DNA of 64,000 nucleotides from a virus (Duplodnaviria; Heunggongvirae; Uroviricota; Caudoviricetes), in IMG/VR virus record IMGVR_UViG_3300008110_000029, one strand, 5' to 3'. A program made the position numbers and the translations under genes. How positions within the stretch are numbered: the stretch's first letter is position 1; each line of letters opens with the position of its first letter. The notes under the pieces are model-generated. The model saw only the letters and a list, made by a program, of their open reading frames with translations, searched no databases and had not been told where the DNA came from. Shown piece after piece: positions 29,156 through 54,682 of this stretch.

Positions 29156-29240
29156 TGGTGCCCGGAGCCGGAATCGAACCGGCACGCTCGGACTCAACGG
29201 ATTATGAGTCCGCTGCTTTAACCAATTAAGCTAAAGGCCC
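29156..29240 (-). pseudogene. tRNA-like gene, apparent chimera (CAU-anticodon 5' half plus Leu-type 3' half), acceptor stem unpaired
   Basis: D arm, GCGGA-CTCATAA-TCCGT anticodon arm, GCCGG-TTCGATT-CCGGC T arm and encoded CCA. 5' GGGCCTT does not pair with 3' TCCGGGC. Confidence 0.75.
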
Positions 29241-49846: not shown

Positions 49847-50713
49847 ATGACAAACGCTGGAAAATTATTTGCCGATATGTATAAAGAATCTCTCACAGAG
49901 GCTTCTACCACTGGAGATATTATTAAAAGTAAACCTGGTGGTTCGGCCATTATGAAAGATCTACACACCACCGAACAAACTCCACATGATTTAAAATATG
50001 ATAAAATAGAAAAAATCAGTTGGAGTGAGTTAAAAGATTACAGTCGTAAGAGCTGGGTAGTTATTGTAGGTTCCGAAGGAACTGGTGCAATTAAAGTCGA
50101 TAACAATACATATCTTGCCAAAGCTGCTAAAGCAGATGGTGAAGTTAAAAGTTTTAGAAATGACAGAGGCGGCAATATATTAGATTTCCTTAAAGGTAAC
50201 ATTGGAAAATTAAGAGAGTTCCATGTAGCTTTAAAACAAAAAGATACCTCGGATACTCAAAGACAGCGAAAAGAACTTAATAAGAAACCCGATGCCGTTA
50301 AAGTAAGTCAAGAATCTCTTGTACAAAAATTCAAACCTTTATGGACTAAAGCTATTAATTCAGCCATTGTGGATATTAAAGGTCACGTAGTAAATCAAAT
50401 TAAAAATGATGCATTTGAAAAAGCAGAAAAGAAATTACATCATATTAAAAATTTAGAAAATGCTATACAAAATATGAATCAAGATAGATATGGAACAGTT
50501 AGTATTATTAAAAGTTCAGTAAATGTAGCAGTCATGATGACCGCTGCTCATTACTATCCAGAAAAAACTGGCGATATAACAAAAGATCGTAATGGGTATT
50601 CTGTTCAAAATAGAGAAGGTGTGAATCAATTGTTAACAGATCTTGAACAAGGTGATACAGCTAAACTTGGAACAGTCCTAGCATTCTTTAAAAGGACATT
50701 GATATCAGGATGA
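49847..50713 (+). CDS. probable internal head protein
   Basis: TAAATA upstream, leader ending SLTEA. Confidence 0.6.
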   Translation: MTNAGKLFADMYKESLTEASTTGDIIKSKPGGSAIMKDLHTTEQTPHDLKYDKIEKISWSELKDYSRKSWVVIVGSEGTGAIKVDNNTYLAKAAKADGEVKSFRNDRGGNILDFLKGNIGKLREFHVALKQKDTSDTQRQRKELNKKPDAVKVSQESLVQKFKPLWTKAINSAIVDIKGHVVNQIKNDAFEKAEKKLHHIKNLENAIQNMNQDRYGTVSIIKSSVNVAVMMTAAHYYPEKTGDITKDRNGYSVQNREGVNQLLTDLEQGDTAKLGTVLAFFKRTLISG

Positions 50714-51852
50714 AACTAACACAAATTATTCTAGAAGCAAACATTGCTGCCAAATTAAAAGATCCTAAAATTATAAAAATGTTAGGTATTGCCGTGCGTC
50801 ACGACGAAACTTTACCAAAACATAAGATAGCAGCATTAGGTCCAAAACCTGAAGATGATCAGATTCTTAATTTATGGAGCGAAATACTAGATCAAAGTTT
50901 AAGCTCAACTAATTATGGTAATATATCTACCGATGGTAAATTTGATGATTGGTTAACACGTCTTTATATTAATGGCGTGGTTGATTATGAGGATATCAGC
51001 GGAGAAGGTGGAGACGCTCTCGGTGCTTGGAAGGCTCTGAGTATACGAGGTAAATTAAAGCCAGAACATCAAGACTTTAACAAATTTAAAAGCATAAAAG
51101 AAATACAACGTATCGTAAGAATGCAAGAATATCGTACAGAATTAGATAGAATTAAAAATGCCGAAGTTATTGAAAAACATAAGCGTGAAAAGAAAGAAAC
51201 CACACTTATAGATAACGAACGTTTCTTGATTACACTGCCTTATAACTACGGTGCTTGCTATACATTTAATAATTCTGCAGGATTCCAAGCCAGCTTCTGT
51301 ACAGGATCTAGTTCGGGGCTACGTTGGTTCGAACGCTATGCTCCAGAAGGTCCAATTATTTCTATTTTTGATAAACAAAATCAAGAAGATGAAAATGGTA
51401 AATGGCAAATGCATGCCCCAACCGGACAGATGAACAACGGAGATCAAAGCGTAACTTATAGAAGTGGTGACAAAAGGTTTTCAGAATTATATCCTGGATT
51501 AATGAAAGAAATTATTGCAGCCATGCAGCAAAAGGCTGAAGAAATTAAAACCAATTCTACTGAAATTACCAGTGGCGGGTACGATGTTGAAGCAGCAATT
51601 AATGACATTAAAGATAAGTTACCTTCTTCTTACGCATCAGAAGCTCCTAAACCAGAAGTTGAACCAGAAGCCGAACCAGGAGCACAAGTTGACGGTCCTG
51701 GAGAATATCTAGTTACACATACTCCTACTGGTAGACAGGCACGTATTAATGCAGACGGTCGTGATGATGCACAACAGAAGTTATTACAAAGACATCCTAA
51801 TATTAATTTAGATGACTTTACATTTGAATTACAGCCCGGAGAGGCTCAATAA
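50710..51852 (+). CDS. probable internal head protein
   Basis: leader MKLTQIILEA. Confidence 0.6.
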   Translation: MKLTQIILEANIAAKLKDPKIIKMLGIAVRHDETLPKHKIAALGPKPEDDQILNLWSEILDQSLSSTNYGNISTDGKFDDWLTRLYINGVVDYEDISGEGGDALGAWKALSIRGKLKPEHQDFNKFKSIKEIQRIVRMQEYRTELDRIKNAEVIEKHKREKKETTLIDNERFLITLPYNYGACYTFNNSAGFQASFCTGSSSGLRWFERYAPEGPIISIFDKQNQEDENGKWQMHAPTGQMNNGDQSVTYRSGDKRFSELYPGLMKEIIAAMQQKAEEIKTNSTEITSGGYDVEAAINDIKDKLPSSYASEAPKPEVEPEAEPGAQVDGPGEYLVTHTPTGRQARINADGRDDAQQKLLQRHPNINLDDFTFELQPGEAQ

Positions 51853-51950
51853 CACCTACCTTAGGACGTTATCGTTACTTTAGGTGTGCCCGGCTGCTGG
51901 GCAGAACGTTATGGGAGTCGTGCCCCGGAATGGCGTTCTAAGTGAGCACT
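51852..51950 (+). ncRNA. candidate structured RNA (three stems plus tail), family unassigned
   Basis: ACACCTA/TAGGTGT, GCCC/GGGC and AGAACG/CGTTCT stems, with a nested GGG/CCC stem, filling an intergenic gap. Confidence 0.55.
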
Positions 51951-51953
51951 AAT

Positions 51954-52538
51954 TCAACTAACTATCTTTTGATAGATTTCTTTCCAGTTCTTGACTCGTG
52001 GTATCGCTGAATCTTCGTAATCCATATTGTGTCCGTGTTCCATCAGTAGACTTTTAAGACCTAGGCTATTGCCAACTTGACAGTTAACAATTTTATCTTC
52101 AATCCACCACAGTCCGCTATCACGATAAGGTTCTAAGGCTTCATCTTTGTCTGCACCTGTGTCTAAGAAAATAAATTTTTCAAATGCTGTTTCTCCAAAC
52201 AATTTCTTTAAATTCATTTTACGTAGTTCTTGTGCATTTTCATCTTTACTCAATGATGTAATACAATGAAACACATACCCATGTTCTTCGTGTAGCCGTT
52301 TTACATAATACATAGCATCGCGCAATGGAGGCAGGAATCCCATGTGTGCAGATTCGTTAAAAATCTTTATAAGCTTTTTACCTTGATCCATGTCAATGCC
52401 ATAACGGGCACCAATATTGTATTTTAAGTTTCCACCATCAACTTTATTAAAGCCATGCTGTCGCATGTACACATCAAAAGCGTATTCCCAATCTAGCAGA
52501 ACACCGTCTGCATCTGTTAATATAATTTTATTTTTCAT
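51954..52538 (-). CDS. HAD-family 5'(3')-deoxyribonucleotidase-like phosphatase
   Basis: TDADGVLLDW, ITSL, WIEDK. Confidence 0.8.
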   Translation of the reverse strand: MKNKIILTDADGVLLDWEYAFDVYMRQHGFNKVDGGNLKYNIGARYGIDMDQGKKLIKIFNESAHMGFLPPLRDAMYYVKRLHEEHGYVFHCITSLSKDENAQELRKMNLKKLFGETAFEKFIFLDTGADKDEALEPYRDSGLWWIEDKIVNCQVGNSLGLKSLLMEHGHNMDYEDSAIPRVKNWKEIYQKIVS

Positions 52539-52935: not shown

Positions 52936-52984
52936 ATTGTGATTATATAATCTGTTATTGAGTATGTCAAGCTATAAATACTTG

Positions 52985-53689
52985 ATGGAAATTATTATAG
53001 CAACGTTAGTGATGACGCACATCACAATAGTGTGCGTTACACTATATCTACACAGAAGCCAGGCGCATAGAGGATTAGAGTTTCATCCTATAGTCAGTCA
53101 TTTTATGCGTTTTTGGTTATGGCTCACAACCGGTATGACTACAAAACAATGGGTTGCAATACATCGCAAACACCATCAAATTACAGACGTGGAAGGCGAT
53201 CCGCACAGCCCGCATGTATTTGGAATATGGACCTTAATGTTTAGTGGTTGGAGTTTATATAATAACGCCGCCAAAGATCCCGAGTTCGTAGTCAAGTACG
53301 GAATGGGCACTCCTAACGACTGGATTGAACACAAGCTTTATACACCTCACCACAAACTTGGTATTCTCTTAATGCTGATCATAGACTTATTGTTATTTGG
53401 ACCATGGGGATTCTTAGTGTGGGGCGTTCAGATGATATGGATTCCATTCTGGGCCGCTGGTTTTATCAACGGTGTTGGTCATTGGTGGGGATATCGTAAT
53501 GGCGATACAAATGATTACAGTCACAATGTTAGCCCAATAGGTATTCTTATCGGTGGTGAAGAGCTACACAACAATCATCACTTAGATCCAGCAAATCCTA
53601 AACTAAGTCGTAAGTGGTTTGAATTTGACATTGGGTGGATGTGGTTTAAGATATTTGAGTTTTTGAAATTAGCAAAACTTAGAACATAA
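52985..53689 (+). CDS. membrane fatty-acid desaturase (delta-9/DesA-like)
   Basis: three His boxes HRSQAH, HRKHH and HNNHH, DIGW, TATAAATA upstream. Confidence 0.93.
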   Translation: MEIIIATLVMTHITIVCVTLYLHRSQAHRGLEFHPIVSHFMRFWLWLTTGMTTKQWVAIHRKHHQITDVEGDPHSPHVFGIWTLMFSGWSLYNNAAKDPEFVVKYGMGTPNDWIEHKLYTPHHKLGILLMLIIDLLLFGPWGFLVWGVQMIWIPFWAAGFINGVGHWWGYRNGDTNDYSHNVSPIGILIGGEELHNNHHLDPANPKLSRKWFEFDIGWMWFKIFEFLKLAKLRT

Positions 53690-54106: not shown

Positions 54107-54682
54107 TTATTTTATGACGCTATCTATCCGTTTGCGAATTATTTCTATTACTGGTTCTGCCAATACCACTTCATAGTGATTGTAGCCAACCTCTACTAGT
54201 TCCATATCCTCGTGGTGCTTCTGACTATGTATACTGACTACTCCGTCGTTAGGAACTAAGATAAAAGGACTGCGACCCGTAGTAGTAACTATGTTAGTCC
54301 AAGGATGCTGTATCTTAATTTTAGCAGCTTCACGCATAGCCCAACTGCTAGGCCCTATGTCACGCATAAGTCTGCTAAATGGCAAGAAGTATTGAGCATA
54401 GTCTGCTACTTCTGCACCGCCATAAGGTGTGCTTAGAGTTACTGCTCCTAGAACATGTGCGGGCAAATGATGACTAAGGTGTAAGGCATAAATCCCTCCT
54501 AGACTATGAGCAATAAAAAAGCACTGTTTTGAAGCCATTAAACTGATCTTCATAGAGGCTAAGTTATGCTCAAACCCATCGCGGCTGTCGTAGTTTAGAT
54601 CTAGCCCTGCACCTAATTGGCTTCTAATATGATTAAAGCTTTCACTAGTGGCATTGGCCCCGTGTATATAAACCAATTGCAT
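54107..54682 (-). CDS. alpha/beta hydrolase
   Basis: YIHGA, AHSLGG nucleophile elbow, NDGVV, C-terminal His. Confidence 0.88.
   Translation of the reverse strand: MQLVYIHGANATSESFNHIRSQLGAGLDLNYDSRDGFEHNLASMKISLMASKQCFFIAHSLGGIYALHLSHHLPAHVLGAVTLSTPYGGAEVADYAQYFLPFSRLMRDIGPSSWAMREAAKIKIQHPWTNIVTTTGRSPFILVPNDGVVSIHSQKHHEDMELVEVGYNHYEVVLAEPVIEIIRKRIDSVIK

Follow-up and report, generated by a model that had tools for sequence, protein, structure and literature searches.

The locus examined here raises the question of what occupies the ~100-base spacer at positions 51852-51950 of a 64,000-nucleotide stretch of phage DNA (IMG/VR record IMGVR_UViG_3300008110_000029, Caudoviricetes; the whole stretch is called the window below), which is bounded by the stop codon of a 380-aa plus-strand ORF (50710-51852) and by that of a convergent 194-aa ORF (51954-52538). 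An initial annotation, made from the letters alone, had read this spacer as a structured non-coding RNA with three stems (P1, P2 and P3), lying directly after a stop codon, GC-rich in AT-rich surroundings and lacking a U-tail. All of these points were confirmed: the TAA stop overlaps the first base of P1, the GC content of the element is 0.54 as compared with about 0.36 for its flanks, no U-tract was found at the element, the sequence 3′ of P3 being AAGUGAGCACUAAUUC, and the three stems are present within 51852-51950 and covary across relatives. The element and its neighbours are listed below.

50710-51852, plus strand: upstream ORF of 380 aa, with its TAA stop at 51850-51852
51852-51887, plus strand: hairpin P1, arms 51852-51858 and 51881-51887; its interior holds the internal loop CCUUAGG, the inner hairpin P1a and then GUUAC
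51866-51875, plus strand: inner hairpin P1a within P1, ACG-UUAU-CGU
51856-51878, plus strand: segment complementary to 23S rRNA, starting with CUACCUUAGGAC (51856-51867)
51888-51902, plus strand: hairpin P2, GCCC/GGGC with the 7-nt loop GGCUGCU, arms 51888-51891 and 51899-51902
51891-51900, plus strand: segment complementary to 16S rRNA, CGGCUGCUGG, made up of the P2 loop and its two inner pairs
51903-51939, plus strand: hairpin P3, ten pairs (51903-51912 with 51930-51939), enclosing P3a
51913-51915 with 51924-51926, plus strand: P3a, with the pairing taken from covariation
51916-51923, plus strand: P3a loop AGUCGUGC, 8 nt, invariant
51927-51929, plus strand: GGA bulge within P3
51940-51950, plus strand: single-stranded tail AAGUGAGC(A), invariant, with AAGUGAGC itself at 51940-51947
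51954-52538, minus strand: convergent gene of 194 aa, phrog_420, with a phosphatase / 5′-3′ deoxyribonucleotidase annotation in other phages

The same three-hairpin fold was obtained with RNAfold (-37 kcal/mol), with the loops predicted to be unpaired, and the minus strand folded no better than shuffled sequences (z = -0.1). The folding z-score of the window sequence alone was only -1.8 against shuffles, a modest value, so the proof of structure rests on the comparison with relatives. No ORF of ≥30 aa in the ORF list overlaps the element on either strand, and the substitutions between copies are paired changes in the stems; a small protein-coding ORF was rejected on these grounds.

Relatives of both flanking proteins were collected from viral contigs, and the element was found in about 75 of these protein-anchored loci at 80-98% DNA identity, in loci where the upstream protein is only 60-75% identical, indicating that the spacer is better conserved than the genes that adjoin it. 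When 43 distinct protein-anchored copies were aligned with MAFFT, which is blind to structure, standard pairs were observed in 88.9% of the cells as against 26-45% with slid partners, double-change cells numbered 116 as against 20-30 in the slid controls, and the observed pairing score was reached by none of 500 shuffles. A covariance model built from this alignment recovered 94 further copies. With 93 distinct sequences aligned to the model, a fit that leans towards structure, 24 of the 27 pairs were changed on both sides. All seven P1 pairs carry changes on both sides, the G-C pair of P1a is flipped to C-G in 25 of the 93 sequences, and the outer two pairs of P2 covary, with the inner two C-G pairs almost never varying; the strongest covariation was found in P3, where a single position can show as many as five pair types. 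G-U pairs exceed A-C pairs by about five to one (108 vs 21), which places the RNA on the plus strand. The covariation also corrected the register of P3a, which the initial annotation had set off by one: 51913-51915 pair with 51924-51926 and leave the 8-nt loop. Both pseudoknots that it had proposed (UGCU/AGCA and GAC/GUC) fall on invariant bases, beyond the reach of covariation, and in 20 of 131 variants U or C comes after GAGC, which breaks the fourth UGCU/AGCA pair.

Four single-stranded blocks are invariant in the protein-anchored set, whereas the stems around them vary and covary.

Block 1: (CUA)CCUUAGGA(C), in the P1 internal loop
Block 2: CGGCUGCUGG, the P2 loop with its two inner pairs
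Block 3: GGAGUCGUGCCC, P3a with its loop
Block 4: AAGUGAGC, the tail

In total, at least 136 distinct copies of the element were found in uncultured phage contigs, and a pattern scan placed it in at least 118 viral contigs, some of them over 300 kb. The pattern used to collect most of the extra copies already includes the blocks of the P2 and P3a loops, so the invariance of these two blocks in the extra copies is partly built in; the unbiased set consists of the 43 protein-anchored variants and three further relatives, L126, L144 and L158. Minimal relatives lack P1a altogether, with P1 reduced to a hairpin whose loop is CUUAGGAC, and the divergent relative L158 retains the tail and the complement of 23S helix 69, its second hairpin being a different one. 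A scan of 185,579 species genomes gave 12 matches, of which one is a true copy, on a 14.6-kb contig binned with a Lishizhenia MAG that is probably a mis-binned phage contig; the other matches were rejected as partial chance matches in GC-rich genomes. No near-identity match was found among the sequenced phages of INPHARED. Homologues were thus obtained from phages together with covariation, and the compensatory changes in more than 130 distinct copies uphold the claim of a structured functional non-coding RNA: judged by this comparison, the element is a real folded RNA of large freshwater phages.

The element was then compared with known families and classes. Rfam 15 at the gathering threshold detected only a tRNA (29159-29238) in the whole window and nothing at the element, and at E ≤ 10 the interval 51750-52050 gave two chance matches that barely touch it, in line with the earlier statement that no family could be assigned. 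ARAGORN reported nothing in the window, and no Rfam tRNA match was obtained at the element. The known self-cleaving ribozymes were rejected, with no model of the hammerhead, twister, twister-sister, pistol, hatchet or HDV-like classes matching, and so were riboswitches and other cis-regulatory leaders, for which the downstream genes are inconsistent or absent and no expression platform is visible. A C/D-box guide RNA was rejected since neither a C box (RUGAUGA) nor a D box (CUGA) occurs within 51852-51950, and a PeSL cassette boundary of the T4-type phages was rejected since the element is present in a single copy in the window and is followed by a promoter in only 39 of 131 contexts. What therefore stood of the earlier interpretation is a structured, uncatalogued non-coding RNA that is not a terminator, and its ribozyme and riboswitch suggestions gained no specific support. 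From its sequence, the element would instead qualify as a candidate base-pairing regulatory RNA, having a conserved seed that is predicted to be accessible and that is complementary to conserved rRNA. A catalogue of more than 10,000 unnamed phage RNA candidates has been published (PMC10690425); in the literature outside that catalogue no description of the motif was found, and the element is apparently an undescribed RNA family.

The initial annotation had made no mention of the complementarity of the P1 internal loop and the P2 loop to rRNA. As these two loops are exactly complementary to rRNA, they point to a base-pairing RNA and not to a ligand-binding or catalytic one. The invariant blocks had been defined by conservation alone, before any rRNA comparison, and were then compared with the annotated E. 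coli rrnH operon. CUACCUUAGGAC is complementary to E. coli 23S 1922-1933 at 12/12 bases; over the 11 nt that follow, the complementarity runs on, with mismatches, through the helix 69 loop as far as 23S 1910. Taken whole, the P1 interior is an imperfect antisense of helix 69 plus the strand after it, matched at 22 of 24 positions in the window copy, at 23 of 24 in L149 and at 22 of 23 in L257. CGGCUGCUGG is complementary at 10/10 bases to 16S 518-527, within the 530 loop. All 136 distinct members carry 9-15 contiguous 23S-complementary bases covering 1923-1929, and, for 16S 517/518-527, 10-11 complementary bases are present in all 136. L126 has a P2 pair flipped in a compensatory manner, by which its 10-nt 16S complement is retained but moved to 519-528, and L144 carries, in place of the P3a loop, 9 nt complementary to 23S 1929-1937, a site that adjoins the P1 target. 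A pairing-energy scan ranked both predicted rRNA sites best, with energies that include large loops.

The chance of a perfect complement within 4.6 kb of rRNA was estimated at ~3e-4 for the 12-mer and ~4e-3 for the 10-mer, and a comparable combination was observed in only 18 of 6390 segments of 101 nt across the 64-kb window, a count that includes the overlapping segments of the element itself. Twelve-mers complementary to rRNA are present throughout the window at chance frequency (23 on both strands), so the argument lies in the matches falling on the invariant blocks and in the pattern across the family, which would outweigh a single rRNA match, a thing that in itself proves little. For the P3a loop and the tail, the comparison with rRNA, with G-U pairs allowed, gave nothing beyond chance-level 7- to 8-mers; the 6-nt match of UCGUGC to 23S 1964-1969 is not significant, and the complements of both segments showed no enrichment elsewhere in the window. 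A 12-nt complement between the inner hairpin and E. coli 23S 1264-1275 lies at variable positions and was treated as chance.

The gene context was examined in the window and in the relatives. Since the stop codon TAA shares its last base with the first base of P1, the element forms a 3′ extension of the upstream message. The 380-aa ORF belongs to no Pfam or PHROG family and its protein has no tblastn match in INPHARED; its homologues lie upstream of the element in 49 of 141 contexts, and dCMP-deaminase-like, SNase-like, IscA-like and other genes take that place in further relatives. Whatever its family, the upstream gene is always co-directional and its stop lies within a few bases of P1, and the element is a module moving between gene neighbourhoods. 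On the other side, an ORF starts 4-22 nt from the tail in 57 of 131 distinct contexts, mostly at 13-18 nt, and in the remaining contexts the element is followed by a sigma-70 type promoter (39), a canonical terminator (9) or something else (26). The downstream genes of the relatives encode BPL_N/GATase-like, desaturase, PstS-like and small unknown proteins, or convergent HAD or TerC proteins. In the window no co-directional ORF follows the element; the convergent 194-aa gene stops 3 nt from it, in place of the co-directional ORF of the relatives, and a perfect sigma-70 type promoter of its minus-strand unit lies at 52970-52942, with no terminator between this promoter and the element. Contigs covering the element were also found in metatranscriptome assemblies from two libraries of different studies. 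One is identical to the window over 51781-51934 and runs from the end of the upstream ORF into the element, which is weakly suggestive of co-transcription, assembled RNA contigs having neither defined ends nor strand and possibly stemming from DNA carry-over; the second comes from a relative.

Our preferred explanation, held tentatively and at a little less than even confidence, is that the element acts by base-pairing with host rRNA. The plus strand would be transcribed as a 3′ extension of the upstream message; its fold into three hairpins is borne out by the covariation and gives a scaffold that would keep the invariant segments single-stranded. The P1 internal loop would pair with 23S 1922-1933, continuing imperfectly through the inner hairpin to the helix 69 loop, and the partner of 16S 518-527 in the 530 loop would be the P2 loop together with both of its closing pairs. 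Helix 69 forms intersubunit bridge B2a, the 530 loop belongs to the decoding site, and both targets are located at the subunit interface and the decoding centre. As both targets are largely folded in the mature 70S ribosome, the likeliest partners would be free subunits or rRNA that is being assembled. The RNA might then block or sequester subunits, or it might tether a subunit to the phage message, an option that would fit the relatives in which an ORF lacking a Shine-Dalgarno sequence begins 13-18 nt after the tail. A more specific proposal, an anti-ribosome RNA that pairs simultaneously with the 16S 530 loop and the 23S helix 69 region, which come together at the decoding centre, and so captures, blocks or recruits subunits or assembly intermediates, is possible, and we advance it with reserve. 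The equally invariant P3a loop and tail may form tertiary contacts or bind a protein. Several observations weigh against rRNA pairing: a large part of either target is taken up by base-pairing or by protein in the mature ribosome, ribosomes are in vast excess over any plausible amount of the element RNA, and the P2 loop could pair with the tail instead.

That last pairing (UGCU/AGCA), which extends to 6 bp in L126, also belongs to the strongest alternative, namely a self-contained tertiary RNA such as a new self-cleaving ribozyme, an aptamer, or an element binding a protein or RNA polymerase, for example a put-like antiterminator, in which the loops would be invariant for folding or protein contact, with the rRNA complementarity a coincidence or a relic of its origin. 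Ribozymes and aptamers typically combine a covarying scaffold with invariant blocks, of which the element has four, two of the four have no rRNA complement, which also counts against rRNA pairing, a second short loop-loop pairing (GAC/GUC) is possible, and nine variants lie just 5′ of a canonical terminator, as antiterminator RNAs do. We nevertheless consider this alternative rather unlikely, as no Rfam ribozyme, riboswitch or other model matches at E ≤ 10, the genes downstream vary between copies or are missing, and chance fails to account for the pair of perfect rRNA complements, for the nearly complete antisense helix 69 seen in variants, or for the way in which L126 and L144 shift without losing complementarity.

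An alternative that accepts the rRNA pairing but confines it to cis is a translation element that holds a ribosomal subunit and delivers it to a start ~16 nt downstream lacking a Shine-Dalgarno sequence, either after termination on the upstream gene or alone, in the manner of a calicivirus TURBS or an IRES; in the window, the downstream ORF would have been lost and the element would be a leftover. The close ORFs that follow the tail (≤22 nt, in the 57 contexts given above) belong to several unrelated gene families, the element always begins a few bases from a co-directional upstream stop, and a Shine-Dalgarno-like motif (GGAG, GAGG or AGGA) was found at 0 of 51 immediately following starts as against 28%, a crude baseline set against copies that are related and not independent; AGGAGA is present upstream of other genes in the loci of the relatives. 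More than half of the contexts, however, have no close ORF and carry a promoter, a terminator or a convergent gene instead, and the window copy shows no decay, sharing 98% identity with copies that precede ORFs, which makes this alternative improbable. With a convergent next gene and no downstream ORF, a cis role in translation is inapplicable to the window copy, for which only a role in trans or as a 3′ UTR is left. The TURBS, or termination upstream ribosomal binding site, pairs with helix 26 of 18S rRNA, and it is similar to the element in having rRNA complementarity beside a stop codon and, in about half of the relatives, a downstream start without a ribosome-binding signal of its own. It differs in lying upstream of the stop/start overlap, whereas the element lies between the stop and the start, and many copies of the element, including that of the window, have no downstream ORF.

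A plain 3′-end structure, that is, a bidirectional terminator or an exonuclease barrier between convergent genes, would suit the flanking genes of the window, the GC-rich and stably folded element, its place right after a stop codon as in intrinsic terminators, and the fact that no other terminator is predicted nearby. It is nevertheless very improbable: no terminator-like site was detected at the element on either strand, no U-run follows the hairpin and no U-tract is present on either strand, the minus-strand fold equals that of shuffled sequence, and a hairpin that serves stability needs no sequence-invariant loops. The element also differs from intrinsic terminators in having three hairpins with invariant loops, and relatives place it before co-directional ORFs, promoters or, just downstream, a separate canonical terminator, which indicates that the element itself is not the terminator, as the initial annotation had argued. 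That the minus strand is the functional one, offering its rRNA-identical 12-mer and 10-mer segments as a decoy to an rRNA-binding enzyme or toxin, would draw on the strong minus-strand promoter that points to the element, but is hardly credible in view of the excess of G-U over A-C pairs in favour of the plus strand, the plus direction of the neighbouring genes and of all the downstream terminators in relatives, and the minus-strand folding score already given.

Returning to pairing with host rRNA, the nearest functional models are the loop-presenting antisense RNAs and the 3′-UTR-derived base-pairing small RNAs of bacteria and plasmids, such as CopA/CopT, RNA I/RNA II and OxyS-fhlA. These resemble the element in having a stable hairpin scaffold that exposes short conserved complementary seeds and in using two separate contact loops, but the apparent targets of the element would be 16S and 23S rRNA and not an mRNA. 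The position at the 3′ end of an mRNA, with a terminator that is sometimes shared, is a further resemblance. We know of no guide-RNA machinery in bacteria, and no natural phage or bacterial RNA antisense to rRNA was found in the literature. The nearest published idea to the rRNA-pairing reading is v-snoRNA1 of Epstein-Barr virus, reported as a C/D-box snoRNA that guides host rRNA methylation and pairs with small- and large-subunit rRNA at conserved A-site residues (PMC13597479). Both are virus-encoded small RNAs with complementarity to both rRNAs, but v-snoRNA1 works with eukaryotic methylation proteins, whereas the element has neither the C box UGAUGA nor the D box CUGA. The helix 69 target region is also common to the element and to synthetic anti-rRNA PNAs: a PNA against helix 69 inhibits the growth of E. 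coli (Kulik et al. 2017, reviewed in PMC7038079), indicating that the site is vulnerable to antisense agents and that both ribosome function and growth can be impaired by an oligomer complementary to it, although the PNAs are man-made with a strand-invading backbone and the element is a natural, folded RNA.

Should the pairing prove real, phages would have an undescribed way of contacting the ribosome, through two rRNA segments that are among the most highly conserved and the most central to its function, and the element would be the first case in the bacterial world of a natural antisense RNA that acts in trans on rRNA; in copies followed by an ORF, it might recruit ribosomes without a Shine-Dalgarno sequence. 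Such an activity would bear on the takeover or reprogramming of translation by large phages, on bacterial initiation through mRNA-rRNA contacts other than Shine-Dalgarno pairing, and on which rRNA sites are open to antisense attack in nature. Should the rRNA reading fail, the element still constitutes a widespread and strongly constrained RNA family.

The rRNA target sites are conserved across phyla, with the helix 69 stem differing in actinobacteria (CCAUCC type, complement GGAUGG, as against the CGGUCC type, complement GGACCG), and since the target sequences are identical in E. coli the hypothesis can be tested without a cultured phage host. In the MAG that holds one copy (L284), which is probably incomplete, the 23S target motif was not found, and a search of viral contigs for the perfect antisense helix 69 pattern returned nothing but a genuine 23S gene present as contamination. 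A search with the actinobacterial form of the complement led to an unrelated small-RNA candidate on another viral contig (L312), which carries a 23/25 complement of actinobacterial 23S 1909-1933, the first 14 complementary bases being the search seed so that only the extension counts as evidence. This candidate has its own extended -10 promoter, a terminator stem and a folding z-score of -4.0.

Among the copies of the element carried by other contigs, an ORF starts 4-22 nt past the tail AAGUGAGC, mostly at 13-18 nt, in 57 of the 131 distinct contexts, and the products include BPL_N/GATase-like proteins, fatty-acid desaturases and others. A Shine-Dalgarno-like motif is absent from the ORFs starting shortly after this tail, and AGGAGA is present at other genes of the same loci. 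Examples of such starts were observed on three contigs:

L123:4320-4340, ORF start after the tail
L149:4363-4382, ORF start after the tail
L192:2480-2500, ORF start after the tail

In some relatives, the gene immediately 3′ of the element is a desaturase gene. In the window, three small minus-strand genes form a unit that is headed by a perfect promoter and reads into the element, with no terminator predicted between the two. The promoter and the genes located just past this convergent unit are as follows:

52942-52970 (-), promoter matching the sigma-70 consensus perfectly (TTGACA, 17 nt, TATAAT)
52958-53689 (+), short fatty-acid desaturase homologue
54107-54682 (-), small alpha/beta-hydrolase-like gene

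Two members of the family are divergent:

L144:3850-3955, divergent member
L158:3154-3264, divergent member

The third loop of the L144 member is complementary to 23S 1929-1937. The L158 member has no third loop, harbors AGGAGG in its second hairpin in place of the 530-loop complement, and is followed on its 3′ side by a canonical terminator.

A search of 185,579 species genomes revealed only one true copy. The contig that carries it is 14.6 kb long and was assigned to an uncultured Lishizhenia MAG, probably a case of phage DNA sorted into a bacterial bin:

L284:1082-1201 (-), true copy of the element

Elsewhere in the window, the Rfam tRNA model scored 44 bits over 80 nt at 29159-29238 (-), and ARAGORN reported no tRNA gene across the whole window, this site included; the site may be an interrupted or unusual tRNA gene. 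A stand-alone small-RNA candidate, unrelated to the element, was detected on a 54-kb viral contig:

L312:10335-10432 (-), small-RNA candidate

The promoter of this candidate is TGnTATAAT, a long stem with a U-tract closes the RNA, and its fold has a z of -4.0; the interior of the RNA complements actinobacterial-type 23S rRNA 1909-1933 at 23 of 25 positions.
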